Source of the DNA: Escherichia coli
Lineage (GTDB): Bacteria; Pseudomonadota; Gammaproteobacteria; Enterobacterales; Enterobacteriaceae
Direction: 5' to 3' (one strand)
NCBI RefSeq assembly: GCF_044647545.1
Contig: NZ_CP172818.1
Length of the DNA stretch: 64,000 nt
In this document: positions 5,199-56,784 of the stretch, one piece after another
Position numbering within the stretch: the stretch's first letter is position 1
Layout: each line of letters begins with the position of its first letter
Made by a program: the position numbers and the translations under genes
The notes under the pieces: model-generated
What the model saw: the letters and a program-made list of their open reading frames with translations, nothing else
What the model was told of the DNA's origin: nothing
Database searches by the model: none

Positions 5199-6851
5199 TT
5201 ACGCGCTCAACAGTTGCTTCATGTCTTCTTCAACAGTGGTGATAGAACGCAGGCCGAATTTCTCGTTCAGCACCGCCAGCAGGTCTGGTGTCAGGAAACC
5301 AGGTGCAGTCGGGCCGGTGACGATATTTTTCACACCCAGAGAAAGCAGCGTCAGCAGAATGACAATCGCTTTCTGTTCAAACCAGGAGAGCACCAGCGAC
5401 AGCGGCAGATCGTTGACTCCGCAGCCCAGTTTCTCTGCCAGCGTTACCGCCAGAATAATTGCTGAGTAAGCATCGTTACACTGACCAGCATCTACCAGAC
5501 GCGGCAGACCTTCGATATCGCCAAACTCAAGTTTATTAAAGCGATATTTACCGCAAGCGAGGGTCAGGATCAGGCAGTCATCCGGCACGCTGGTGGCGAA
5601 ATCGGTGAAGTAGTGACGCTCGCCGCGTGCGCCGTCACAGCCGCCAAGCAGGAAGATATGACGCAGTTTTTCACGGCTCACCAGATCAATCAGCGTATCG
5701 GCTGCGCCAAGCAGTGTCTGGCGACCAAAGCCCACGGTGATCAGGTGCGGAATTTCGCTGTACGGGAAGCCCGCCATCTGTTGCGCCTGGGCGATGACCG
5801 CAGAGAAATCTTCGCCATCCAGATGACGCACACCCGGCCAGCCAACGATGCTGCGGGTCCAGATACGATCGTCATAAGCGCCTACGGTTGGGTCGATGAT
5901 GCAGTTCGAGGTCATCACGATGGGGCCAGGGAAACGAGCGAACTCCACTTGCTGATTCTGCCAGCCGCTGCCGTAGTTACCGACCAGATGCTTGAATTTA
6001 CGCAGCTCCGGGTAGCCATGCGCAGGCAGCATTTCACCGTGGGTGTAGACATTAACGCCCGTGCCTTCGGTCTGTTCCAGCAGGTTGTAGAGATCTTTGA
6101 GATCGTGACCGGAAATCAGAATGCATTTACCTGCCGTCGCTTTGACGTTGACCTGGGTTGGCGTCGGGTGACCGTATTTACTGGTTTCGCCTGCATCCAG
6201 AATGCTCATCACTTTGAAGTTCATCTGGCCGATTTCCATTGAACACTCAAGAAGCGCGTTCATATCGGCAGGCCAGGTCCCCAGCCACGCCATGATTTTA
6301 TGGTACTGGGCATAAATATCGTTGTCGTATTGACCGAGAACATGCGCGTGTTCCATATAGGCCGCCGCACCTTTCAGGCCATACAGGCACAGCAGACGCA
6401 GGCCGAGAATGTTTTCGCCAATCGCCGCTTTATCTTTGTTAGGGGTAAATTCTGCTGCCTGACGTTGCAGCTCGCCGAGATCGTCGCTCACCAGTTGCAG
6501 GTCAGCCATCGGGTTATCGACGTGCGCGTTGGCATCTACAGCCAGGCATTGTGCTTTCAGCGCCTCGCGCAGGACAATCGCTTCACGAGCGTAGCCGACA
6601 ATTCGCGGAGAATCGAAGTTAACGTTGGTCAGGGTTGAGAAAAAGGCACGTGGCGCAAAGCTGTCTACATCGTGGTTGATGATGCCGTATTCACGTGCTT
6701 TCACTGCCCAGGCCGAAAGCCCTTGCAGCGTCGCGATGAGTAAATCCTGAAGGTCAGAGGTTTCCGCCGTTTTACCACACATCCCCTGCGCGTATGAGCA
6801 GCCGTTTCCTGCCGGAGTACGGATAGTTTGTTCACATTGCACACAAAACAT
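5199..6851 (-). CDS. hcp: hybrid-cluster protein (hydroxylamine reductase)
   Basis: ORF 5199-6884; start taken at MFCVQCEQT (N-terminal Cys cluster) for 550 aa; recognised sequence. Confidence 0.92.
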
Positions 6852-16209: not shown

Positions 16210-18486
16210 ATGCTCAATCAAGAACTGGAACTCAGTTTAAATATGGCTTTCGCCAGAGCGCGCGAGCACCGTCATGAGTTTATGACCGTCGAGCACTTGT
16301 TACTGGCGCTGCTCAGTAACCCATCTGCCCGGGAGGCGCTGGAAGCGTGTTCTGTGGATTTGGTTGCGCTCCGTCAGGAACTGGAAGCCTTTATTGAACA
16401 AACCACACCCGTTCTGCCTGCCAGTGAAGAGGAGCGCGACACACAGCCGACGCTGAGTTTTCAGCGTGTACTGCAACGTGCGGTCTTCCATGTCCAGTCC
16501 TCCGGTCGCAATGAGGTTACCGGTGCAAACGTTCTGGTCGCTATCTTTAGCGAACAGGAGTCGCAGGCGGCATATCTGTTGCGTAAACATGAAGTCAGCC
16601 GTCTCGATGTGGTGAACTTTATCTCTCATGGCACGCGTAAAGACGAGCCGACACAGTCTTCTGATCCTGGCAGCCAGCCAAACAGCGAAGAACAAGCTGG
16701 TGGGGAGGAACGTATGGAGAATTTCACGACGAACCTGAATCAGCTTGCGCGCGTGGGCGGAATCGACCCACTGATTGGTCGTGAGAAGGAGCTGGAACGT
16801 GCTATTCAGGTTCTCTGCCGTCGCCGTAAAAACAACCCGCTGCTGGTGGGGGAATCTGGTGTCGGTAAAACCGCGATTGCGGAAGGTCTTGCCTGGCGAA
16901 TTGTTCAGGGCGATGTGCCGGAAGTGATGGCTGACTGTACGATTTACTCTCTCGATATCGGTTCTCTGTTAGCGGGCACAAAATATCGCGGCGACTTTGA
17001 AAAACGTTTTAAAGCGTTGCTCAAGCAGCTGGAGCAGGACACTAACAGCATCCTGTTTATTGATGAGATCCACACCATTATCGGTGCGGGGGCAGCGTCT
17101 GGTGGTCAGGTTGATGCGGCTAACCTAATCAAACCGTTGCTCTCCAGCGGTAAAATTCGCGTAATTGGTTCGACAACCTATCAGGAGTTCAGCAACATTT
17201 TCGAGAAAGACCGTGCTCTGGCGCGTCGCTTCCAGAAAATTGATATTACTGAACCTTCGATCGAAGAAACTGTTCAAATCATCAATGGCCTGAAACCGAA
17301 GTACGAAGCGCACCATGACGTGCGTTATACCGCAAAAGCGGTGCGTGCAGCGGTAGAGCTGGCGGTGAAATACATTAACGATCGTCATCTGCCGGATAAA
17401 GCCATTGACGTTATCGACGAAGCGGGCGCTCGCGCACGCCTGATGCCGGTAAGCAAACGCAAGAAAACCGTTAATGTGGCGGATATTGAGTCTGTGGTGG
17501 CCCGTATTGCGCGCATTCCAGAGAAGAGTGTTTCGCAGAGTGACCGCGATACCCTGAAAAACCTCGGCGATCGCCTGAAAATGCTGGTCTTCGGTCAGGA
17601 TAAAGCCATTGAGGCGCTGACTGAAGCCATTAAGATGGCGCGTGCAGGTTTAGGTCACGAACATAAACCGGTCGGTTCGTTCCTGTTTGCCGGTCCTACC
17701 GGGGTCGGGAAAACAGAGGTGACGGTACAGCTTTCGAAAGCTTTGGGCATTGAGCTTCTGCGCTTTGATATGTCCGAGTATATGGAACGCCATACCGTCA
17801 GCCGTCTGATTGGTGCGCCTCCGGGATACGTTGGTTTTGATCAGGGGGGGCTGCTGACCGATGCGGTAATCAAGCATCCGCACGCGGTACTGCTGCTGGA
17901 CGAAATCGAGAAAGCGCATCCGGACGTGTTCAATATTCTGTTGCAGGTGATGGACAACGGTACGCTGACCGATAACAACGGACGCAAAGCGGACTTCCGT
18001 AACGTGGTATTGGTGATGACCACCAACGCCGGGGTACGAGAAACTGAGCGTAAATCGATTGGTCTTATCCACCAGGATAACAGCACCGATGCGATGGAAG
18101 AGATCAAGAAGATCTTTACACCGGAATTCCGTAACCGTCTCGACAACATTATCTGGTTTGATCATCTGTCAACCGACGTGATCCATCAGGTGGTGGATAA
18201 ATTCATCGTCGAGTTGCAGGTTCAGCTGGATCAGAAAGGTGTTTCTCTGGAAGTGAGCCAGGAAGCGCGTAACTGGCTGGCCGAGAAAGGTTACGACCGG
18301 GCAATGGGCGCTCGTCCGATGGCGCGTGTCATCCAGGACAACCTGAAAAAACCGCTCGCCAACGAACTGCTGTTTGGTTCGCTGGTGGACGGCGGTCAGG
18401 TCACCGTCGCGCTGGATAAAGAGAAAAATGAGCTGACTTACGGATTCCAGAGTGCACAAAAGCACAAGGCGGAAGCAGCGCATTAA
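16210..18486 (+). CDS. clpA: ATP-dependent Clp protease ATP-binding subunit ClpA
   Basis: ORF 16195-18486; two AAA+ modules with Walker A GESGVGKT and GPTGVGKT; start at [10 protein letters not shown] (758 aa). Confidence 0.95.
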
Positions 18487-26209: not shown

Positions 26210-29200
26210 TTGAGCCAGGAATACACTGAAGACAAAGAAGTCACATTGACAAAGTTAAGTAGCGGCCGCCGCCTTCTGGAGGCGTTGCTGATCCTTATTG
26301 TCCTGTTTGCCGTCTGGTTGATGGCTGCCTTACTAAGCTTTAACCCTTCGGACCCCAGCTGGTCGCAAACGGCCTGGCATGAACCTATCCATAATTTAGG
26401 TGGGATGCCCGGTGCATGGCTGGCAGATACGCTGTTCTTTATTTTTGGCGTGATGGCTTACACCATTCCCGTCATTATTGTCGGCGGTTGTTGGTTTGCC
26501 TGGCGTCATCAGTCCAGCGACGAATACATTGATTATTTTGCCGTTTCGCTACGCATCATTGGCGTTTTGGCGCTCATCCTTACCTCCTGTGGTCTGGCGG
26601 CAATCAACGCTGACGATATCTGGTATTTTGCCTCCGGTGGCGTCATTGGCAGCTTACTGAGCACTACGCTACAACCACTGCTACACAGTAGCGGGGGAAC
26701 TATTGCACTGCTCTGCGTTTGGGCAGCGGGCCTGACGCTGTTCACCGGTTGGTCATGGGTGACCATTGCTGAAAAACTCGGCGGCTGGATTTTAAATATT
26801 CTTACCTTCGCCAGTAATCGTACCCGTCGCGATGATACCTGGGTCGATGAAGATGAGTATGAAGACGACGAAGAATATGAAGAAGATGAAAGTCACGGCA
26901 AACAGCATGAATCACGCCGTGCCCGTATTCTTCGCGGCGCGCTAGCGCGTCGTAAACGGTTGGCGGAAAAATTCATTAATCCGATGGGGCGGCAAACAGA
27001 CGCTGCGTTGTTCTCCGGTAAGCGGATGGATGATGACGAAGAGATTACCTACACTGCACGCGGTGTGGCTGCCGACCCTGACGACGTCCTCTTTTCGGGC
27101 AATCGTGCAACGCAGCCAGAATATGACGAGTACGATCCATTATTAAACGGTGCGCCAATTACCGAACCTGTTGCTGTAGCAGCTGCTGCTACCACGGCGA
27201 CACAAAGCTGGGCTGCACCGGTTGAACCTGTGACTCAGACGCCGCCAGTTGCCTCTGTTGATGTTCCACCTACGCAACCTACAGTAGCCTGGCAGCCTGT
27301 ACCGGGGCCGCAAACAGGAGAACCGGTTATTGCACCTGCACCGGAAGGTTACCCACAGCAGTCACAATATGCGCAGCCTGCAGTGCAATATAATGAGCCG
27401 CTGCAACAACCTGTACAGCCACAGCAGCCGTATTATGCGCCTGCAGCGGAACAGCCTGTGCAACAACCTTACTACGCTCCTGCGCCGGAACAGTCTGCGC
27501 AACAGCCGTATTACGCCCCTGCGCCAGAACAATCGGTGGCAGGTAACGCCTGGCAAGCCGAAGAGCAGCAATCCACTTTTGCTCCACAGTCTACATACCA
27601 GACTGAGCAAACTTATCAGCAGCCAGCCGCTCAGGAGCCGTTGTACCAACAGCCGCAACCCGTTGAACAGCAGCCTGTTGTGGAGCCTGAACCCGTTGTA
27701 GAAGAGACAAAACCCGCGCGTCCGCCGCTTTACTATTTTGAAGAAGTGGAAGAGAAGCGTGCCCGTGAACGTGAACAACTTGCGGCCTGGTATCAACCGA
27801 TTCCTGAACCGGTTAAAGAACCAGAACCGATCAAATCTTCGCTGAAAGCACCTTCTGTTGCAGCAGTACCTCCAGTGGAAGCCGCTGCCGCTGTTTCCCC
27901 TCTGGCATCTGGCGTGAAAAAAGCGACACTGGCGACGGGGGCTGCCGCAACCGTTGCCGCGCCAGTCTTCAGTCTGGCAAATAGCGCTGGACCGCGTCCG
28001 CAGGTCAAAGAGGGGATTGGCCCGCAGTTGCCACGACCGAAACGCATCCGCGTGCCAACTCGTCGTGAACTGGCGTCTTACGGTATTAAGCTGCCCTCAC
28101 AGCGTGCGGCAGAAGAAAAAGCCCGTGAAGCTCAGCGCAATCAGTACGATTCCGGCGATCAGTATAACGATGATGAAATCGATGCGATGCAGCAGGATGA
28201 ACTGGCACGTCAGTTCGCCCAGACACAGCAGCAACGCTATGGCGAACAGTATCAACATGATGTGCCCGTGAACGCAGAAGATGCAGATGCTGCGGCAGAG
28301 GCTGAACTGGCTCGTCAGTTTGCTCAAACTCAACAACAACGTTATTCCGGCGAACAACCTGCTGGGGCGAATCCGTTCACTCTGGATGATTTTGAATTTT
28401 CGCCAATGAAAGCGTTGCTGGATGATGGTCCACACGAACCGCTGTTTACGCCAATTGTTGAACCTGTACAGCAGCCGCAACAACCGAAAGTTGCACCGCA
28501 GCAGCAATATCAGCAGCCGCAACAGCCGGTTGCACCACAGCCGCAATATCAGCAGCCGCAACAGCCGGTTGCGCCGCAGCCGCAGTATCAGCAGCCACAA
28601 CAACCGGTTGCGCCGCAGCCGCAATATCAGCAGCCACAACAGCCAGTTGCGCCGCAGCCGCAGTATCAGCAGCCACAACAGCCAGTTGCGCCACAGCCGC
28701 AGGATACCCTGCTTCATCCGCTGTTGATGCGTAATGGCGACAGCCGTCCGTTGCATAAACCGACGACGCCGCTGCCTTCTCTGGATTTGTTGACGCCGCC
28801 GCCGAGCGAAGTGGAGCCGGTAGATACCTTTGCTCTTGAACAAATGGCGCGTCTGGTGGAAGCGCGTCTGGCTGATTTCCGTATTAAAGCCGATGTCGTC
28901 AATTATTCTCCGGGGCCGGTTATCACTCGCTTTGAATTGAACCTGGCACCGGGCGTAAAAGCGGCGCGTATTTCTAACTTGTCACGTGACCTTGCCCGTT
29001 CACTTTCGACGGTGGCGGTGCGTGTCGTTGAAGTTATTCCTGGCAAACCCTATGTAGGTCTGGAGTTACCGAATAAAAAACGACAAACCGTTTATCTGCG
29101 TGAAGTTTTGGATAACGCCAAATTCCGCGATAATCCGTCGCCATTAACCGTGGTGCTGGGTAAAGATATCGCCGGTGAGCCGGTGGTTGCCGATCTGGCG

Positions 29201-30244
29201 AAAATGCCGCACTTGTTGGTTGCGGGGACTACCGGTTCCGGTAAGTCTGTCGGTGTGAACGCGATGATCCTGAGCATGCTTTATAAAGCACAGCCAGAAG
29301 ATGTTCGTTTCATCATGATCGACCCGAAAATGCTGGAGCTTTCGGTTTATGAAGGCATTCCACACCTGTTAACGGAAGTCGTTACTGATATGAAAGATGC
29401 CGCCAACGCGCTGCGCTGGTGTGTTAACGAGATGGAGCGTCGTTATAAACTGATGTCTGCGCTGGGTGTGCGTAATCTGGCGGGTTATAACGAAAAAATT
29501 GCTGAAGCCGATAGGATGATGCGTCCGATTCCAGACCCGTACTGGAAGCCGGGTGACAGTATGGATGCCCAGCATCCGGTGCTGAAAAAAGAACCGTACA
29601 TTGTGGTGTTGGTGGACGAATTTGCCGACCTGATGATGACGGTAGGTAAAAAAGTGGAAGAGCTGATAGCACGTCTGGCGCAAAAAGCCCGTGCCGCGGG
29701 TATCCACCTCGTACTGGCAACGCAGCGTCCATCGGTTGATGTTATTACTGGTCTGATTAAAGCGAATATTCCGACCCGTATCGCCTTTACCGTATCCAGT
29801 AAGATTGACTCACGTACCATTCTTGATCAGGCTGGCGCGGAATCACTGCTGGGTATGGGGGATATGCTTTACTCTGGGCCGAACTCCACGTTGCCGGTAC
29901 GTGTTCATGGTGCTTTTGTTCGCGATCAGGAAGTTCATGCCGTGGTGCAGGACTGGAAAGCGCGTGGCCGCCCACAGTATGTTGATGGCATCACCTCCGA
30001 CAGTGAAAGCGAAGGTGGCGCGGGCGGTTTCGATGGCGCTGAAGAACTGGATCCGTTGTTCGATCAGGCGGTACAGTTTGTCACTGAAAAACGCAAAGCA
30101 TCAATTTCTGGCGTACAGCGTCAGTTCCGCATTGGTTATAACCGTGCAGCGCGTATTATCGAACAGATGGAAGCGCAGGGGATTGTCAGCGAACAGGGGC
30201 ACAACGGTAATCGTGAAGTGCTGGCCCCACCGCCGTTTGACTAA
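26210..30244 (+). CDS. ftsK: DNA translocase FtsK (N-terminal membrane domain, long Pro/Gln-rich linker, C-terminal motor and gamma domain)
   Basis: 1344-codon ORF starting at TTG ([11 protein letters not shown]); Walker A GTTGSGKS; C-terminal winged-helix gamma region; repetitive PQ linker. Confidence 0.93.
28479..28705 (+). repeat. in-frame 39-bp tandem repeats (about 5.5 copies) encoding [13 protein letters not shown] units in the FtsK linker
   Basis: CAGCAGCCGCAACAGCCGGTTGCACCACAGCCGCAATAT repeated head-to-tail with a few substitutions; a second shorter repeat family ([13 protein letters not shown], 3 copies) lies at about 27400-27540. Confidence 0.85.
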
Positions 30245-33989: not shown

Positions 33990-36434
33990 ATGAAAACGAA
34001 AATCCCTGATGCGGTATTGGCTGCTGAGGTGAGTCGCCGTGGTTTGGTAAAAACGACAGCGATCGGCGGCCTGGCAATGGCCAGCAGCGCATTAACATTA
34101 CCTTTTAGTCGGATTGCGCACGCTGTTGATAGTGCCCTTCCAGCAAAGTCAGACGAAAAGGTAATCTGGAGCGCCTGTACAGTTAACTGTGGTAGCCGCT
34201 GCCCGCTACGTATGCACGTTGTGGACGGTGAAATTAAATATGTTGAAACGGATAATACCGGCGATGACAACTATGACGGCCTGCACCAGGTGCGCGCCTG
34301 TCTGCGTGGGCGTTCCATGCGTCGCCGTGTCTACAATCCGGACCGCCTGAAATATCCGATGAAACGAGTCGGGGCGCGCGGTGAAGGCAAATTCGAGCGC
34401 ATTAGCTGGGAAGAAGCCTACGACATCATCGCGACCAATATGCAGCGCCTGATCAAAGAGTACGGCAACGAGTCTATCTATCTGAACTATGGTACCGGTA
34501 CGCTGGGCGGCACCATGACCCGCTCCTGGCCGCCGGGAAATACCCTGGTCGCTCGCCTGATGAACTGCTGCGGCGGTTATCTGAACCATTACGGTGACTA
34601 CTCTTCCGCGCAAATTGCGGAAGGTTTGAACTATACCTACGGCGGCTGGGCAGATGGTAACAGCCCGTCGGATATCGAAAACAGTAAACTGGTAGTGCTG
34701 TTTGGTAATAACCCTGGCGAAACGCGAATGAGTGGCGGTGGGGTGACTTACTATCTTGAACAGGCGCGTCAGAAATCTAATGCTCGCATGATCATCATCG
34801 ATCCGCGCTATACCGACACCGGAGCCGGGCGCGAAGATGAGTGGATCCCCATTCGTCCGGGAACAGATGCCGCACTGGTTAACGGTCTGGCGTATGTCAT
34901 GATCACCGAAAACCTGGTGGATCAGGCATTCCTCGATAAATATTGCGTTGGCTACGACGAGAAAACACTGCCAGCCAGTGCGCCGAAAAATGGTCACTAT
35001 AAAGCTTATATTCTGGGTGACGGGCCAGATGGCGTGGCTAAAACGCCGGAATGGGCCTCGCAAATCACTGGTGTTCCGGCAGACAAAATCATCAAATTGG
35101 CCCGTGAAATCGGTAGTACCAAACCGGCGTTTATCAGCCAGGGATGGGGCCCGCAGCGTCACGCTAACGGTGAAATCGCAACCCGTGCTATCTCGATGCT
35201 GGCGATTCTGACCGGTAACGTTGGTATTAACGGAGGCAACAGTGGCGCGCGTGAAGGTTCATACAGCTTACCGTTTGTCCGTATGCCGACCCTCGAAAAC
35301 CCGATCCAGACCAGCATTTCGATGTTTATGTGGACCGATGCCATTGAACGTGGCCCGGAAATGACAGCGCTGCGTGATGGTGTGCGCGGGAAAGATAAGC
35401 TGGATGTGCCGATCAAAATGATCTGGAACTATGCCGGTAACTGCCTGATTAATCAGCATTCTGAAATCAACCGTACCCATGAAATCCTTCAGGATGATAA
35501 GAAGTGCGAGCTGATTGTGGTTATCGACTGCCACATGACCTCATCGGCGAAATACGCTGACATCCTGCTGCCTGACTGCACCGCTTCAGAACAGATGGAC
35601 TTTGCACTGGATGCATCCTGCGGGAATATGTCTTACGTGATTTTCAACGATCAGGTGATTAAACCGCGCTTTGAATGTAAGACCATCTATGAAATGACCA
35701 GCGAACTGGCAAAACGTCTTGGCGTTGAGCAACAGTTTACTGAGGGCCGTACCCAGGAAGAGTGGATGCGGCATCTGTATGCCCAGTCGCGGGAAGCGAT
35801 TCCTGAACTGCCAACGTTTGAAGAGTTCCGTAAGCAGGGGATCTTTAAAAAGCGCGACCCACAAGGGCATCACGTTGCTTATAAAGCTTTCCGTGAAGAT
35901 CCGCAGGCAAATCCACTGACCACGCCATCGGGGAAAATTGAGATTTATTCGCAGGCGCTGGTTGACATTGCCGCTACCTGGGAATTGTCAGAAGGTGATG
36001 TGATCGATCCACTGCCGATCTACACGCCGGGCTTTGAAAGTTATCAGGATCCGCTGAACAAACAGTATCCGCTGCAGCTTACGGGTTTCCACTATAAATC
36101 TCGCGTTCACTCAACTTACGGCAACGTTGATGTGCTGAAAGCAGCTTGCCGTCAGGAAATGTGGATCAACCCGCTTGATGCGCAAAAACGCGGTATCAAC
36201 AACGGCGATAAAGTCAGGATCTTTAACGATCGTGGTGAGGTTCATATTGAGGCGAAAGTGACGCCACGAATGATGCCGGGTGTGGTCGCACTGGGTGAAG
36301 GTGCCTGGTATGACCCGGATACAAAACGTGTCGATAAGGGCGGTTGTATTAACGTACTGACCACTCAACGTCCGTCTCCTCTCGCTAAGGGGAATCCGTC
36401 ACATACAAACCTTGTTCAGGTTGAAAAGGTGTAA
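33990..36434 (+). CDS. dmsA: DMSO reductase catalytic subunit A (molybdopterin, Tat-exported)
   Basis: 814-aa ORF; twin-arginine signal SRRGLVKTTAIGGLAMA; N-terminal Cys cluster CTVNCGSRCP. Confidence 0.95.
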   Translation: MKTKIPDAVLAAEVSRRGLVKTTAIGGLAMASSALTLPFSRIAHAVDSALPAKSDEKVIWSACTVNCGSRCPLRMHVVDGEIKYVETDNTGDDNYDGLHQVRACLRGRSMRRRVYNPDRLKYPMKRVGARGEGKFERISWEEAYDIIATNMQRLIKEYGNESIYLNYGTGTLGGTMTRSWPPGNTLVARLMNCCGGYLNHYGDYSSAQIAEGLNYTYGGWADGNSPSDIENSKLVVLFGNNPGETRMSGGGVTYYLEQARQKSNARMIIIDPRYTDTGAGREDEWIPIRPGTDAALVNGLAYVMITENLVDQAFLDKYCVGYDEKTLPASAPKNGHYKAYILGDGPDGVAKTPEWASQITGVPADKIIKLAREIGSTKPAFISQGWGPQRHANGEIATRAISMLAILTGNVGINGGNSGAREGSYSLPFVRMPTLENPIQTSISMFMWTDAIERGPEMTALRDGVRGKDKLDVPIKMIWNYAGNCLINQHSEINRTHEILQDDKKCELIVVIDCHMTSSAKYADILLPDCTASEQMDFALDASCGNMSYVIFNDQVIKPRFECKTIYEMTSELAKRLGVEQQFTEGRTQEEWMRHLYAQSREAIPELPTFEEFRKQGIFKKRDPQGHHVAYKAFREDPQANPLTTPSGKIEIYSQALVDIAATWELSEGDVIDPLPIYTPGFESYQDPLNKQYPLQLTGFHYKSRVHSTYGNVDVLKAACRQEMWINPLDAQKRGINNGDKVRIFNDRGEVHIEAKVTPRMMPGVVALGEGAWYDPDTKRVDKGGCINVLTTQRPSPLAKGNPSHTNLVQVEKV

Positions 36435-43290: not shown

Positions 43291-43332
43291 GATGTATTAA
43301 AAACGCTGTAGCAGAATGAAGCGCGGAATAAC

Positions 43333-43362
43333 AAAGCGGCAACTCAATAAAGTTGCCGCTTT
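43333..43362. terminator. bidirectional intrinsic terminator between convergent ycaK and pflA
   Basis: AAAGCGGCAACT-CAATAA-AGTTGCCGCTTT: perfect 9-bp stem flanked by A run and T run. Confidence 0.7.
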
Positions 43363-43371
43363 ACGGGGAAA

Positions 43372-44112
43372 TTAGAACATTACCTTATGACCGTACTGCT
43401 CAAGAATGCCTTTCACGCGTTCCATGGTCTCTTTCTTCGGTGGTTTAACACCATCAAGTTTGTATTCTTCACCCATCGCCACCCATTTGTGTTTGCCCAG
43501 CTCGTGGTAGGGGAGAAGCTCGATTTTCTCAACGTTGCCCATATCACGGGTAAATTCACCGAGGCGATGCGCTGAATCGTCATCGTCAGACCAGCCTGGG
43601 ACAACAACGTAGCGGATCCACACCTTCACATTTTTATTCGCCAGATATTTAGCAAACTCCAGCGTGCGGTGGTTGGAAACTCCAACCAGATTTTGGTGGA
43701 TCTCGTCGTTCATCTGTTTGAGATCGAGCATTACCAGGTCGGTTACTTCCAGCAGTTCATCAATCACCGGATCGTAACGACGAACAAAACCGTTGGTGTC
43801 CAGACAGGTATGAATGCCTTCTTTTTTGCAGGCGCGGAACCAGTCACGAACAAACTCAGCTTGTAGGATTGCCTCACCGCCGGATGCGGTAACGCCGCCG
43901 CCGGAAGCGTTCATAAAGTGGCGATAGGTCACCACTTCCTTCATCAAATCTTCAACGGTAACTTCTTTACCGCCATGCGTATCCCAGGTGTCGCGGTTAT
44001 GACAATACAGGCAGCGCATCAGGCAGCCCTGGAAAAAGGTGATAAAGCGAATACCCGGGCCGTCTACGGTTCCACAGGATTCAAAGGAGTGAATGCGACC
44101 AATAACTGACAT
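43372..44112 (-). CDS. pflA: pyruvate formate-lyase activating enzyme (radical SAM)
   Basis: ORF 43372-44139; start at [15 protein letters not shown] (246 aa); radical-SAM CxxxCxxC in [10 protein letters not shown]. Confidence 0.93.
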
Positions 44113-44234
44113 TGCGGTGTTTCTCCAGATGTGGCCCATCTGAGGCCGTGTTGGTGCGCAGCTCGAAGGCTACGTCGAGTCTGTTTTGGCAGTCACCTTA
44201 AAGTATAGATAGCTGACAAAAAAGGCTCTCGTGC

Positions 44235-44260
44235 TAAAAAAGGCCCCACTTTCGTGGAGC
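44235..44260 (-). terminator. intrinsic terminator of pflB
   Basis: Minus-strand hairpin GGCUCCAC-GAAA-GUGGGGCC (one G-U pair) followed by UUUUUU. Confidence 0.7.
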
Positions 44261-44303
44261 CTTTATTGTACGCTTTTTACTGTACGATTTCAGTCAAAAC
44301 TAA

Positions 44304-46586
44304 TTACATAGATTGAGTGAAGGTACGAGTAATAACGTCCTGCTGCTGTTCTTTAGTCAGCGAGTTGAAACGTACTGCGTAGCCAGATACACGGATGGTC
44401 AGCTGCGGATATTTTTCCGGGTTTTCCATCGCGTCGAGCAGCATTTCACGGTTCATCACGTTAACGTTCAGGTGCTGACCACCTTCGATGGATGCTTCGT
44501 GGTGGAAGTAACCATCCATCAGACCAGCCAGGTTGGTCTTACGAACTTCGTCGTCTTTACCCAGTGCGTTCGGAACGATAGAGAAGGTGTAGGAGATACC
44601 ATCTTTAGCGTAAGCAAACGGCAGTTTAGCAACGGAAGTCAGAGAGGCTACAGCACCTTTCTGGTCACGACCGTGCATCGGGTTAGCACCCGGTCCGAAC
44701 GGCGCGCCAGCACGACGACCGTCTGGGGTGTTACCAGTTTTCTTACCATACACAACGTTAGAAGTGATGGTCAGAACAGACTGAGTCGGGATTGCGTCAC
44801 GGTAGGTGTGCAGTTTCTGAATTTTCTTCATGAAACGTTCTACCAGGTCAACAGCCAGGTCATCTACACGCGGATCGTTGTTACCAAACTGCGGGTATTC
44901 GCCTTCGATTTCGAAGTCGATAGCCAGACCGTCTTCGTCACGAATCGGTTTAACTTTCGCATATTTGATTGCAGACAGGGAGTCTGCAGCAACGGACAGA
45001 CCAGCGATACCACACGCCATGGTGCGGATAACGTCACGGTCGTGCAGCGCCATCAGAGAGGCTTCGTAGCTGTACTTGTCGTGCATGTAGTGGATGATGT
45101 TCAGTGCAGTGATGTACTGTTTAGCCAGCCAGTCCATGAAGTGATCCATGCGCTCCATCACTTCATCGTAGTTCAGGAGATCGCCTTTGATCGGTTCAGA
45201 CTTCGGACCAACCTGCATTTTCAGTTTTTCGTCAACGCCGCCGTTGATTGCGTACAGCATGGTTTTCGCCAGGTTTGCACGCGCACCGAAGAACTGCATT
45301 TGTTTACCAACGATCATCGGGCTTACGCAGCAAGCAATAGCGTAGTCATCGTTGTTGAAGTCCGGACGCATCAGGTCATCGTTCTCATACTGCAGAGAAG
45401 AGGTGTCGATGGACACTTTAGCGGCGAATTTCTTGAAGTTCAGCGGCAGTTTTTCAGACCACAGAATGGTCATGTTCGGTTCCGGAGACGGACCCATGGT
45501 GTACAGGGTGTTCAGGAAACGGAAGCTGTTTTTGGTAACCAGGGTACGACCGTCGAGGCCCATACCACCGATAGATTCGGTTGCCCAGATCGGGTCGCCA
45601 GAGAACAGTTCATCGTATTCCGGAGTACGCAGGAAGCGAACCATACGCAGTTTCATGACCAGGTGGTCAACCATTTCCTGCGCTTCTTGTTCGGTGATCT
45701 TGCCAGCTTTCAGGTCACGTTCGATGTACACATCCAGGAAGGTGGAGGTACGACCGAAGGACATTGCAGCACCGTTCTGAGACTTAACAGCAGCCAGGTA
45801 GCCGAAGTAAGTCCACTGGATAGCTTCCTGAGCGTTGGTAGCCGGACCAGAGATGTCGTAGCCGTATTTCGCAGCCATTTCTTTCATCTGACCCAGAGCG
45901 CGGTGCTGTTCAGCGATTTCTTCGCGCAGACGGATAGTCTGTTCCAGGTTTACGCCGTTTTCCAGATCAGCCTGCAGAGAAGTGAACTGTGCCAGTTTGT
46001 CTTTCATCAGGTAGTCGATACCGTACAGCGCAACGCGACGGTAGTCACCGATGATACGACCACGGCCATATGCATCTGGCAGACCGGTCAGAACACCAGA
46101 TTTACGGCAACGCAGGATGTCCGGAGTGTAAACGTCGAACACGCCCTGGTTGTGAGTTTTACGGTATTCAGTGAAGATTTTTTTGATCATCGGATCCAGT
46201 TCGCGGTTGTACGCTTTGCAGGAACCTTCGATCATTTTGATACCACCGAACGGGATAAGAGCACGTTTCAGCGGAGCTTCAGTCTGCAGACCAACGATTT
46301 TCTCAAGCTGCTTGTTGATGTAGCCAGCGTCGTGAGAGGTGATGGTGGAAGCAACAGCGGTGTCAAAGTCAACTGGCGCGTGAGTGCGGTTTTCCAGTTT
46401 AACGCCTTCCATTACTTTGTCCCACAGGGTGGTGGTCGCTTCAGTAGCGCCAGCCAGGAAGGACTCGTCACCCTCGTACGGAGTGTAGTTTTTCTGAATG
46501 AAGTCACGGACGTTTACTTCATTCTGCCAGTCACCTTTGGTAAAACCTTCCCAGGCTGTGGCTAACTTTTCATTAAGCTCGGACAT
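44304..46586 (-). CDS. pflB: pyruvate formate-lyase (glycyl radical enzyme)
   Basis: 760-aa ORF; C-terminal glycyl-radical motif RVSGYAVRF; recognised sequence. Confidence 0.97.
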
Positions 46587-46640
46587 GTAACACCTACCTT
46601 CTTAAGTGGATTTTTTATTTACTGCGTACTTCGACAACCA

Positions 46641-47498
46641 TTAATGGTGGTCGTTTTCACGCAGGTAAATGACCCAGTATGTCAACCCAACCAACAAACC
46701 ACCACCGATAATGTTGCCGATCGTAACCGGAATCAGGTTATCAGTGATGAAATTCATCACGGTCAGGTGAGAAAAATTTTCCGGTGCTGAACCGACTGCG
46801 GTCCAAAATTCCGGGGATGCGAAGTCGCGGATTACAATACCCATCGGGATCATAAACATGTTTGCGATACTGTGCTCAAAACCGCTGGCAACAAACATCG
46901 CGACCGGCAACACCATAATGAACGCTTTATCCATCAGGCTGCGGCCAGAATAACTCATCCATACTGCCAGACATACCATCAGGTTTGCCAGGATACCAAG
47001 GCAGACGGCCTCAATAAAAGTATGGTGCACTTTGTGGTCGGCGGTTTGTAGGACGTTTAGTCCCCATTGACCATTCGCGGTCATATACTCGCCGGAAAGC
47101 CACATTAAAAGTACAAACAGCAGTGCGCCGACCAGGTTGCCAAAATAGACATTTAGCCAGTTTTTCGCCAACTGACCCCAGGTGATGCGCCCACTCGCCT
47201 TAGCAACAACAATCAACACTGTGGAAGTAAAGAGATCGGCTCCGCAGACAACACAAAGAATCAGCCCCAGAGAGAAGCAAATGCCGCCAACCAGTTTTGC
47301 CATGCCGAAGGGCATTGTTCCTGTGCCAGTGGTTGCTGTGATATAGAAGACGAATGCGATTGAGATGAAAACACCGGCGGTAATCGCCAGATAGAAAGTC
47401 TTAAGCGGATGTTTCGTTGCTTTATAGACACCTGCCTCTTCGGCCACTTTGGCCATTGCTGCAGGAAGTAAAAGATCAAAAGGGTTGTCAGCTTTCAC
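46641..47498 (-). CDS. focA: formate channel FocA (FNT family)
   Basis: ORF 46641-47837; start placed at GTG (VKADNPFDLLLPAAMAK) for 285 aa. Confidence 0.85.
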   Translation of the reverse strand: MKADNPFDLLLPAAMAKVAEEAGVYKATKHPLKTFYLAITAGVFISIAFVFYITATTGTGTMPFGMAKLVGGICFSLGLILCVVCGADLFTSTVLIVVAKASGRITWGQLAKNWLNVYFGNLVGALLFVLLMWLSGEYMTANGQWGLNVLQTADHKVHHTFIEAVCLGILANLMVCLAVWMSYSGRSLMDKAFIMVLPVAMFVASGFEHSIANMFMIPMGIVIRDFASPEFWTAVGSAPENFSHLTVMNFITDNLIPVTIGNIIGGGLLVGLTYWVIYLRENDHH

Positions 47499-47558
47499 AC
47501 TAACTCTCTCTTTATTAAGTCGGCGACGAGATACTAACAAAGCATTATAGATGAGAAA

Positions 47559-47572
47559 TTGATATAGATCAT
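47559..47572. promoter_or_regulatory. FNR-like palindrome TTGATATAGATCAT in the focA-pflB promoter region
   Basis: TTGAT-N4-ATCAT, 9 of 10 match to FNR consensus; about 60 bp upstream of focA start in a 400-bp AT-rich leader. Confidence 0.5.
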
Positions 47573-47903
47573 ATCTCGCCTGGCTTATAGGCCCGTAACT
47601 CGCATGGTTTTTATGCAAATACGGAGTAAATGTTTGATTATCCAAATAAAAATAAATTTTAAAAATTAACAAATGAGTTGAATTTTTTCCGCATCCTCCG
47701 CTAAAACAGTTAATTAAAAGGGAGCACCAGGCGAATAAAGTAACAATATCGATCGTATTTATTAAATATAAATTACCGATATTTAACTTTATAATTACAA
47801 TTATTTTGTTAATGCAAATATATGTAAAGCGGGGCATTAAAAAAACGCCCCGTAATATAACTCAGACGAATCATTAAGCCTACATTGCGTAGGCTATTTG
47901 ATT

Positions 47904-49664
47904 TTATTTTGCCCAGAATGCTGCTTTGGCGCGCTGCAGCTTTTCGTAGGCCTTCAACAACGACTGATGTGCAGCAAACGCGTGCAGATCGCTATCTACT
48001 GGTTGCAAGCCATAAAACGCCGCTTCGCCGCTCATTGCCGCACTGGCGGCTTCCACGGCATCTGCGCCGTACATGCGAACAAACGCATTCAGATATTGCA
48101 GCGGCTGGCGATCTTCTTCCTGCGCCAGTAATAACAACGTTTGCAGGCAGCGATAATAGTTGGCGCGTTCCGGACTAAATACTGATGAGTTAAACTCCAT
48201 CGTCCATTCGGTCCAGACCAGAGCCTGTTCCAGATCGCCACCAGCCAGCGCCAGCATGGCTTTTAATTCTCCGATACGCAGGGTGTACCAACCGTTATCC
48301 GACCCGGTCGCCAGACCCAACAGCTCACGCACGCGAGTAAAGTCATCAAAACCTTCTTCATCCAGTTGCTCGATAAGGTTCAGGTAATCTTCTTTTTCCC
48401 ACTCGCTGCCTGGTAACGAAAGAATCGTTTCACGTAAATGGCTGCCCATACTGTTATTCGCCAGCCACAGATCTTCAGCCGGATAAATATCGGACATGCC
48501 AGGCACGATAATTCGGCAAGCATAAACGCCCAGATGCTCGTAATCGGCAATATAAACTTCTTTATCTTCTTTGTTGAAGATAGCCATCAGCGTAGCAAAC
48601 TCTTCTTCCGTAGTGCCGGAGAAATTCCAGTCCACAAACGGATAATCGGCATCCTGCTTGAACAGGTCCCAGGAGATTAAACCGCTGGAATCGATAAAGT
48701 GCGTTTCGAGGTTGGTATGTTCAGCAACTTCTTCATCATCGAAGGTTGGCGGAGTAAACACATCCAAATCTTTCAGGCCACGACCTTGCAGCAGCTCGGT
48801 CACGGTACGTTCCAGTGCTACGCCAAAATCAGGATGCGCACCGAAAGAGGCAAAGCAGGTGCCGTTAGCAGGATTAAACAGAACCACGCAAATCACCGGA
48901 TACTGGCCGCCAAGCGAACCATCATAAGCAAAGATTGGGAAACCTTCTGCTTCCAGTGTTTCGATCGCTTCAACCACCGCTGGGTAACGCGCCAGCACGT
49001 CTGCCGGGATTTCCGGCAAGCTGATGCTTTCAGCAATAATGCGGTTTTTCACGTAGCGTTCGAAAACTTCGGACAATCCCTGAACGCGTGCTTCGTTACG
49101 GGTATTGCCAGCAGACATACCGTTAGAAACGTACAAGTTACCAATGATATTCATCGGAATATAAATGGTCTGGTTGTCGGACTGGCGCGTAAACGGTAGA
49201 CCGCAAATACCACGATCTTCGTTACCGGATTGCAGGTCAATCAGCATACTACCGGTCAGTTCATTCTCCGGATCGTAAAATGCGCGCAGACGGTCATCGA
49301 GCAGCCCTTCTGGTACATCGTCATTTTCGGTCAGTGGGAACCATTTTTCGTTGGGATAATGCACGAATGGGCCGTTGGCGATGGTTTCGCCCAGCCAGAA
49401 GTCCGCAAAAAAGTAGTTGGTTGAGAGACGCTCGAAATATTCACCGAGGGCAGAAGCCAGCGCCGCTTTTTTGGTTGCGCCTTTACCGTTGGTAAAACAC
49501 AGTGCGCACTCTTTGTCGCGAATATGTACAGACCAGACATTAGGCACGGGATTCAGCCAGGAGGCCTCTTCAATCTGAAAACCGAGGTCTGAAAGTTTTT
49601 GCTGGAAGCGTGCGATGGAATCTTCCAGAGCGGCATCTTTGCCGGGGATAAATGTTTGCGTCAT
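47904..49664 (-). CDS. ycaO: YcaO-domain protein (ATP-dependent amide activation family)
   Basis: ORF 47904-49697; start at MTQTFIPGKDAALED (586 aa); recognised YcaO sequence. Confidence 0.9.
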   Translation of the reverse strand: MTQTFIPGKDAALEDSIARFQQKLSDLGFQIEEASWLNPVPNVWSVHIRDKECALCFTNGKGATKKAALASALGEYFERLSTNYFFADFWLGETIANGPFVHYPNEKWFPLTENDDVPEGLLDDRLRAFYDPENELTGSMLIDLQSGNEDRGICGLPFTRQSDNQTIYIPMNIIGNLYVSNGMSAGNTRNEARVQGLSEVFERYVKNRIIAESISLPEIPADVLARYPAVVEAIETLEAEGFPIFAYDGSLGGQYPVICVVLFNPANGTCFASFGAHPDFGVALERTVTELLQGRGLKDLDVFTPPTFDDEEVAEHTNLETHFIDSSGLISWDLFKQDADYPFVDWNFSGTTEEEFATLMAIFNKEDKEVYIADYEHLGVYACRIIVPGMSDIYPAEDLWLANNSMGSHLRETILSLPGSEWEKEDYLNLIEQLDEEGFDDFTRVRELLGLATGSDNGWYTLRIGELKAMLALAGGDLEQALVWTEWTMEFNSSVFSPERANYYRCLQTLLLLAQEEDRQPLQYLNAFVRMYGADAVEAASAAMSGEAAFYGLQPVDSDLHAFAAHQSLLKAYEKLQRAKAAFWAK

Positions 49665-55026: not shown

Positions 55027-56700
55027 ATGACTGAATCTTTTGCTCAACTCTTTGAAGAGTCCTTAAAAGAAATCGAAACCCGCCCGGGTTCTATCGTTCG
55101 TGGCGTTGTTGTTGCTATCGACAAAGACGTAGTACTGGTTGACGCTGGTCTGAAATCTGAGTCCGCCATCCCGGCTGAGCAGTTCAAAAACGCCCAGGGC
55201 GAGCTGGAAATCCAGGTAGGTGACGAAGTTGACGTTGCTCTGGACGCAGTAGAAGACGGCTTCGGTGAAACTCTGCTGTCCCGTGAGAAAGCTAAACGTC
55301 ACGAAGCTTGGATCACGCTGGAAAAAGCTTACGAAGATGCTGAAACTGTTACCGGTGTTATCAACGGCAAAGTTAAGGGCGGCTTCACTGTTGAGCTGAA
55401 CGGTATTCGTGCGTTCCTGCCAGGTTCTCTGGTAGACGTTCGTCCGGTGCGTGACACTCTGCACCTGGAAGGAAAAGAGCTTGAATTCAAAGTAATCAAG
55501 CTGGATCAGAAGCGCAACAACGTTGTTGTTTCTCGTCGTGCCGTTATCGAATCCGAAAACAGCGCAGAGCGCGATCAGCTGCTGGAAAACCTGCAGGAAG
55601 GCATGGAAGTTAAAGGTATCGTTAAGAACCTCACTGACTACGGTGCATTCGTTGATCTGGGCGGCGTTGACGGCCTGCTGCACATCACTGATATGGCCTG
55701 GAAACGCGTTAAGCATCCGAGCGAAATCGTCAACGTGGGCGACGAAATCACTGTTAAAGTGCTGAAGTTCGACCGCGAACGTACCCGTGTATCCCTGGGC
55801 CTGAAACAGCTGGGTGAAGATCCGTGGGTAGCTATCGCTAAACGTTATCCGGAAGGTACCAAACTGACTGGTCGCGTGACCAACCTGACCGACTACGGCT
55901 GCTTCGTTGAAATCGAAGAAGGCGTTGAAGGCCTGGTACACGTTTCCGAAATGGATTGGACCAACAAAAACATCCACCCGTCCAAAGTTGTTAACGTTGG
56001 CGATGTAGTGGAAGTTATGGTTCTGGATATCGACGAAGAACGTCGTCGTATCTCCCTGGGTCTGAAACAGTGCAAAGCTAACCCGTGGCAGCAGTTCGCG
56101 GAAACCCACAACAAGGGTGACCGTGTTGAAGGTAAAATCAAGTCTATCACTGACTTCGGTATCTTCATCGGCCTGGACGGCGGCATCGACGGCCTGGTTC
56201 ACCTGTCTGACATCTCCTGGAACGTTGCAGGCGAAGAAGCAGTTCGTGAATACAAAAAAGGCGACGAAATCGCTGCAGTTGTTCTGCAGGTTGACGCAGA
56301 ACGTGAACGTATCTCCCTGGGCGTTAAACAGCTCGCAGAAGATCCGTTCAACAACTGGGTTGCTCTGAACAAGAAAGGCGCTATCGTAACCGGTAAAGTA
56401 ACTGCAGTTGACGCTAAAGGCGCAACCGTAGAACTGGCTGACGGCGTTGAAGGTTACCTGCGTGCTTCTGAAGCATCCCGTGACCGCGTTGAAGACGCTA
56501 CCCTGGTTCTGAGCGTTGGCGACGAAGTTGAAGCTAAATTCACCGGCGTTGATCGTAAAAACCGCGCAATCAGCCTGTCTGTTCGTGCGAAAGACGAAGC
56601 TGACGAGAAAGATGCAATCGCAACTGTTAACAAACAGGAAGATGCAAACTTCTCCAACAACGCAATGGCTGAAGCTTTCAAAGCAGCTAAAGGCGAGTAA
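55027..56700 (+). CDS. rpsA: 30S ribosomal protein S1
   Basis: 557-aa ORF with six S1 repeats; recognised sequence. Confidence 0.97.
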
Positions 56701-56784
56701 TTCTCTGACTCTTCGGGATTTTTATTCCGAAGTTTGTTGAGTTTACTTGACAGATTGCAGGTTTCGTCCTGTAATCAAGCACTA

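Follow-up and report, generated by a model that had tools for sequence, protein, structure and literature searches.

The 750-codon open frame opposite pflB in Escherichia coli is almost certainly a shadow of codon bias and not a second gene

The plus strand opposite pflB, the gene for pyruvate formate-lyase, carries an open reading frame of 750 codons in a 64,000-nt segment of the E. coli chromosome (the window, which ends at ybjT on one side and at kdsB on the other), and comparison of sequences indicates that this frame is almost certainly a passive shadow of the codon bias of pflB and not a second gene. The gene is among the most codon-biased in E. coli; selection for codons preferred in translation has stripped it of nearly all rare codons, TTA, CTA and TCA included, so that the opposite strand meets no stop between the end of pflB and the lone TTA at Leu8. 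The shadow effect in frame -1 is already known, and pflB is an ordinary example of it.

Positions 43300-47900 match several complete E. coli genomes at 100% identity, and there the annotation reads pflA-pflB-focA, and for PflB homologues the families PF02901 and PF01228 are on record (Pfam). The first-pass annotation had reported a 750-codon plus-strand frame opposite pflB with codons that are exact reverse complements of pflB codons, and had stated that an antisense stop in this register needs TTA, CTA or TCA in the sense strand; all of this is borne out here. Our ORF scan returned the same frame (Table 1), which extends over 753 codons from stop to stop (44304..46565). The offset of the ORF from the end of pflB (44313-44304) is 9 nt, so that the two are codon-aligned (register 0) and every antisense codon is the reverse complement of one pflB codon. 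A stop can arise in this register only where the sense strand has TTA, CTA or TCA, because these are the codons needed for TAA, TAG and TGA, and pflB, with 63 Leu and 36 Ser, contains one TTA (codon 8), no CTA and no TCA among its 760 codons. Since the three codons are nearly absent from pflB, the opposite strand stays open. The closing TAA sits opposite the Leu8 codon, which is kept as TTA in 56 of 76 full-length pflB orthologues. Only frame -1 is open in this way; the remaining four alternative frames over pflB contain 29-51 stops each.

Table 1. Coordinates of pflB, of the frame opposite to it and of other antisense frames in the window
Feature	Position	Strand	Codons	Remarks
pflB, pyruvate formate-lyase CDS (real gene)	44304..46586	-	760	annotated in an E. 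coli record of 100% identity
Shadow ORF opposite pflB, frame -1	44313..46565	+	750	starts with TTG; ORF listing, translation 750 aa
TAA opening the frame opposite pflB	44301..44303	+		in the pflB-pflA spacer, adjoins the pflB stop codon
TAA closing the frame opposite pflB	46563..46565	+		reverse complement of pflB Leu8 TTA
Frame -1 shadow opposite rpsA	55063..56202	-	379	552 codons stop-to-stop (55063..56721)
Frame -1 shadow opposite dmsA	34206..35162	-	318	350 codons stop-to-stop
Frame -1 shadow opposite hcp	5613..6242	+	209
Frame -1 shadow opposite clpA	17650..18165	-	171
Frame -1 shadow opposite ycaO	48699..49199	+	166
Frame -1 shadow opposite ftsK	28097..28843	-	248	missing from the first-pass annotation

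Whether the frame is longer than chance would allow depends on the null, because the choice between window-average and highly expressed codon usage decides the answer. The reference for the latter was built from 37 genes of E. coli K-12 with high expression, namely those for ribosomal proteins together with tufA/B, fusA and rpoA/B/C. TTA, CTA and TCA together occur at 24.5 per 1000 codons in the 47 genes of the window, at 3.3 in the reference, at 1.3 in pflB and at 1.8 in rpsA, in which a lone TTA is found at codon 13. With the window-average synonymous usage of Leu and Ser as the null, 14.7 such codons are expected in pflB and the probability of at most one is 2e-6, whereas with the highly expressed reference 2.6-2.9 are expected and the same probability is 0.2-0.26. 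pflB is itself more codon-biased than the 37-gene reference, the ratio of observed to expected codons being 0.38 for the codons that yield antisense stops and 0.55 for other rare codons; TTG, AGT, ATA, AGA, CGA, CGG, CCC and GGG, none of which yields an antisense stop, are at zero. After scaling by 0.55, 1.43 antisense-stop codons are expected and one is observed (P of at most one, 0.58), and there is in pflB no avoidance specific to TTA, CTA and TCA beyond the general depletion of rare codons. The effect also produces stop-free frame -1 runs elsewhere in E. coli, of 991 codons in rpoB, 844 in rpoC and 528 in fusA, while tufA and tufB are open over their full 394 codons; the pflB run is surpassed by those of rpoB and rpoC.

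The same relation between bias and open antisense frames is seen across the window. The codon adaptation index (CAI), calculated against the 37-gene reference, is 0.82 for pflB, the highest of the 47 genes, and 0.81 for rpsA, the next value being 0.59. The first-pass annotation had described the hosts of the long antisense frames as highly expressed, which is supported for pflB and rpsA but not clearly for dmsA, hcp, clpA and ycaO, with CAI values of 0.49-0.55. When the index was recomputed without Leu and Ser codons, to avoid circularity, it was negatively correlated with the fraction of TTA, CTA and TCA among Leu and Ser codons in the 47 genes (Spearman rho -0.62, p 4e-6) and positively with the share of the gene length that the longest run takes up (rho +0.61).

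The lengths and the register that had been given for the antisense ORFs opposite rpsA, dmsA, hcp, clpA and ycaO were reproduced (Table 1). Besides the ORF opposite ftsK, those opposite dmsB (197 codons) and msbA (185) had likewise been overlooked. The window has 27 antisense ORFs that are 120 aa or longer, and 18 of them are in register 0, one third being expected. In a permutation test on 42 genes, in which synonymous codons were shuffled within each gene among Leu positions and among Ser positions, the longest run had P values of 0.02 in dmsA (uncorrected over the 42 genes), 0.29 in hcp, 0.81 in clpA, 0.26 in ycaO and 0.20 in ftsK; the runs of dmsA, hcp, clpA and ycaO are thus roughly what their own counts of TTA, CTA and TCA lead one to expect. 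The values for pflB (0.03) and rpsA (0.04) were rejected as a sign of avoidance, as they reflect only the position of a single TTA near the 5' end, and P was below 0.05 in four of the 42 genes, which is no excess.

Signals for expression of the antisense frame are poor. None of the 753 codons of the frame is ATG, because all 14 His codons of pflB are CAC and never CAT. There are 17 in-frame GTG or TTG candidates; the TTG at 44313 has an anti-Shine-Dalgarno pairing energy of +1.5 kcal/mol, i.e., no Shine-Dalgarno pairing, and the best candidate, a GTG, reaches -3.7 kcal/mol compared with a median of -5.9 for the annotated genes of the window. A consensus scan of the plus strand found no sigma-70-like site between 43300 and 46900, and no match to TATAAT in five of six positions was present on this strand from 44200 to 46560. 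The antisense translation had no Pfam match above the cut-off, and no Rfam family was found for the frame. The composition of the translation (V 15.3%, F 10.8%, T 9.3%, M 0%, K 0.8%, P 0.9%, W 0.4%) is unlike that of a protein and is the mirror image of the preferred codons.

A comparison of pflB and its flanks among 80 species of Enterobacterales (89-100% protein identity) revealed that the antisense frame breaks where codon bias is weaker. A homology search with PflB gave only relatives of at least 90% identity and hence no orthologue of low GC, and the contig scan gave Enterobacterales only. Of the 80 species, 19 to 21 have the whole frame open and about three quarters have it broken. There are four antisense stops in Klebsiella indica, three in Salmonella enterica arizonae, a stop at codon 338 in Citrobacter youngae, and 20 each in Pantoea conspicua and in Xenorhabdus ehlersii, in which the longest run is 97 codons and the locus has a GC content of 41%, making it the most AT-rich pflB in the sample. 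Antisense stops occur in at least one species at 85 distinct Leu or Ser positions. Among 79 pflB orthologues the number of stops falls with the CAI free of Leu and Ser (rho -0.71, p 3e-13) and rises with the number of other non-preferred Leu and Ser codons (rho +0.69). The E. coli paralogue tdcE (79% amino acid identity), which is weakly biased and of low expression, has eight antisense stops and no run longer than 267 codons.

Within E. coli the frame is open in five of six alleles sampled, strain 14EC047 having an extra stop opposite codon 100, and about 26 nucleotide differences result in three changes in PflB versus 21 in the antisense translation. In 75 comparisons between orthologues (Nei-Gojobori), the median Ka/Ks is 0.074 for the sense frame and 2.06 for the antisense frame, with an antisense minimum of 1.40. 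Antisense values above 1 throughout are the signature that would be expected where a gene under constraint faces an unselected frame -1, and such a signature has been discussed for frame -1 by Moshensky and Alexeevski (10.1101/724807).

The antisense translation of pflB matched 26 clusters among 5.8 billion predicted proteins; one is from Cronobacter sakazakii ('hypothetical protein ESA_02442', 783 aa), another from Salmonella Typhi ('Uncharacterised protein', 507 aa) and a third, also called hypothetical, from Enterobacter cloacae. Three of the more remote matches are on metagenome contigs, and the strand opposite each of them encodes a PflB 60-69% identical to that of E. coli. The pflB genes of these contigs have a GC3 of 0.62-0.93 and not one TTA, CTA or TCA, and the genes flanking them have 6-7 of these codons per 1000. 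On all three, gene calling had picked the shadow instead of pflB, which on one of them is split by frameshifts. These matches are mis-calls of the kind collected in AntiFam and provide no evidence for a conserved protein. A fourth match, which had the look of a distant open shadow, was discarded because its contig was assembled from C-to-T converted reads (66 C in 15.6 kb). When the antisense translations of pflB and rpsA were looked up as exact sequences in a collection of 15 billion proteins, nothing matched; this negative carries little weight, since gene callers may place the start elsewhere and the first residue may be written L instead of M, and the homology search is the more informative of the two.

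The first-pass annotation had attributed these frames to avoidance of TTA, CTA and TCA and not to overlapping genes, and every sequence-based test that we ran is in agreement. A genuine antisense gene would mean that a functional protein is made from a transcript of the frame, whether of all of it or of a long stretch beginning at an internal GTG, and that selection on this protein adds to the absence of the three codons from pflB. The unusual length of the frame might be taken to suggest this, as might the annotation of an equivalent ORF in C. sakazakii, S. Typhi and E. cloacae, but these entries are unreviewed 'hypothetical' calls and the metagenome gene caller replaced pflB by the shadow. 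Most of the sampled E. coli alleles keep the frame open, but one of the six and about three quarters of the species do not, antisense Ka/Ks exceeds 1 in 75 of 75 comparisons, and there is no avoidance beyond the general codon bias that such selection could account for. Initiation independent of a Shine-Dalgarno sequence exists, the real gene rpsA scoring just -1.0 kcal/mol; nevertheless the frame has no ATG, no good Shine-Dalgarno sequence, no promoter-like site in the regions scanned and no domain, and its composition is not that of a protein. Antisense overlapping genes have also been claimed in E. coli, e.g., pop opposite ompA (as described in PMC7103648), but neither pflB nor its locus tags Z1248, ECs0986 and b0903 were found in the 18 supplementary text files of Zehentner et al. 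on candidate overlapping genes of EHEC. A functional overlapping gene is very unlikely because the start signals are poor, the frame decays with relaxed bias and Ka/Ks exceeds 1 in every comparison, and we consider this reading, with its added selection, scarcely credible; the frame probably yields no functional protein.

Transcription alone is another matter. Raghavan, Sloan and Ochman (2012; PMC3419515, Table 2) reported an antisense RNA (asRNA) opposite pflB with a start site common to E. coli and Salmonella, pflB being one of 17 such genes, with a read depth of 79 in E. coli and 214 in Salmonella; therefore some plus-strand RNA exists in the gene, which counts against the shadow reading, although the same authors argued that most such transcripts are non-functional. 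This RNA might be spurious and sometimes translated in frame -1, giving unstable, unselected polypeptides and possibly a proto-gene, with the sequence not shaped by it. A stop-free frame would let any ribosome that initiates travel far, and many bacterial antisense ORFs have a ribosome-profiling signal (Ardern et al., review), but the initiation signals are poor, the read depth in E. coli is modest and the heavy transcription of pflB in the sense direction should hamper antisense RNA, so that we regard such pervasive translation as highly improbable. There is a similarly slight chance that the asRNA is translated in frame -1 from a GTG or TTG lacking a Shine-Dalgarno sequence into a young, lineage-restricted polypeptide, either a proto-gene or a product that regulates pflB expression, which the codon bias of pflB would have enabled but not selected. 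If the frame were translated, few of the antisense overlapping genes known from bacteria would be as long, but all the sequence evidence opposes this. The codon-bias shadow as the preferred reading carries a caution for annotation: a 2.25-kb stop-free frame is extreme under a genome-average model (P about 2e-6) and unremarkable under the bias of the host gene, and codon-bias shadows are still being mis-called as proteins, as the 26 clusters and the three metagenome contigs with the shadow in place of pflB illustrate.

The known systems nearest to the pflB shadow are the frame -1 ORFs of genes with high expression. According to Mir et al. (2012; PMC3454372), the codon usage of the top ~5% of expressed E. 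coli genes leads to long ORFs in frame -1 in particular, and the effect in highly expressed genes had been described by Merino (1994) and Silke (1997), as cited in PMC3454372. Register, cause and class of host gene are all alike in those ORFs and in the pflB shadow, and there is no material difference between them; pflB is long and very biased, hence the long run. Moshensky and Alexeevski (10.1101/724807) used the same formula based on Leu and Ser codons and described frame -1 ORFs without purifying selection opposite dnaK, rpoB and similar genes. The dnaK antisense ORF, like the pflB shadow, is longer than 1800 bp, lies in frame -1 of a host gene that is conserved and highly expressed, has a Ka/Ks without purifying selection and was occasionally mis-annotated as a protein. 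It differs in having once borne the name 'NAD-specific glutamate dehydrogenase' and in having a Pfam family (PF10712), whereas the pflB shadow is known only as 'hypothetical' or 'uncharacterised' and has no Pfam match above the cut-off. AntiFam (Eberhardt et al. 2012; PMC3308159) assembles spurious ORFs opposite true genes that spread through the databases; shadow ORFs of this type owe their protein-like conservation solely to that of the true gene, and the 26 matches to the pflB shadow fit this description. In pop/ompA of EHEC and in adm/dmdR1 of Streptomyces, as in the pflB case, an annotated gene contains an ORF on its opposite strand. Those two cases are backed by transcript, ribosome-profiling, protein or phenotype evidence, whereas the pflB frame fails the tests of start signals, conservation and constraint; adm, moreover, is given as a frame -2 ORF in 10.1101/724807, in contrast to the frame -1 of the pflB shadow.

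Among the genes of the window, pflB and rpsA are the two with the strongest codon bias, and each contains a single TTA codon, located close to its 5' end (see the table). In the permutation test, in which synonymous codons were shuffled among Leu and among Ser positions and the longest stop-free antisense run was compared for each gene, both genes returned P ~0.03-0.04, because it is the 5'-proximal position of this one TTA that leaves such a long run uninterrupted. Of 76 full-length pflB orthologues from Enterobacterales, 67 have Leu at the position of Leu8, and 56 have kept the TTA codon there. Rare, AT-rich codons are known to be favored close to start codons, and the location of the TTA in both genes fits this preference. 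The stop-free run opposite dmsA is also longer than the permutations usually gave (P = 0.02, uncorrected for the 42 genes tested); dmsA shows only a moderate codon adaptation index (CAI; 0.50), and the unusual length of its run is probably due to chance.

Positions of the features discussed
Feature	Sequence	Position	Strand	Remark
Sole TTA of pflB	window	46563-46565		codon 8 (Leu8), near 5' end of gene
Sole TTA of rpsA	window	55063-55065		codon 13, near 5' end of gene
Stop-free run opposite dmsA	window	34206-35258	-	350 codons
pflB-pflA spacer	window	44113-44303		
pflB shadow/pflB locus	L092	3748-6042		metagenome contig
pflB shadow/pflB locus	L093	1248-3410		metagenome contig
pflB shadow/pflB locus	L094	10001-11518		metagenome contig

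The His codons of pflB (44304-46586) are exclusively CAC (14/14; no CAT), and consequently the 753-codon antisense frame, when searched for ATG, contained none; this combination is common to all six E. coli alleles checked. Translations of the frame opposite pflB (the shadow ORF) make up 26 clusters in public protein collections (P0121-P0146), including named entries such as ESA_02442 of Cronobacter sakazakii, an 'Uncharacterised protein' of Salmonella Typhi and QTN38_006170 of Enterobacter cloacae, and the gene calls of three metagenome contigs list the shadow instead of pflB. A further contig, L095 (Logan SRR18107614), is syntenic with the pflB-to-rpsA region of E. coli, but just 66 C remain in its 15.6 kb, and its pflB shows 535 C-to-T differences; it looks like an assembly of bisulfite-type converted reads. 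The proteins predicted from it, P0130 among them, were rejected as artefacts.

Compared with the otherwise identical strain FDAARGOS_497, the offset to the window changes from +111 to +58, +36 and then 0 bases along the first 30 kb, the changes falling in ftsK (26210-30244) and in intergenic stretches before 30400. The ftsK gene measures 4035 nt in the window vs. 4071 nt in FDAARGOS_497, an in-frame difference of 36 nt.

On the plus strand, no consensus promoter was found around pflB (43300-46900), nor any 5-of-6 match to TATAAT over the gene (44200-46560); the only promoter-like match of the consensus scan in this region lies on the minus strand, upstream of pflA (44293-44265). Raghavan et al. 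(2012; PMC3419515, Table 2) described a plus-strand antisense RNA opposite pflB whose start site occupies the same position in E. coli and in Salmonella. The pflB transcript is reported to be stabilized by a site of RNase III cleavage in the spacer between pflB and pflA, near the pflA promoter (PMC5371410).
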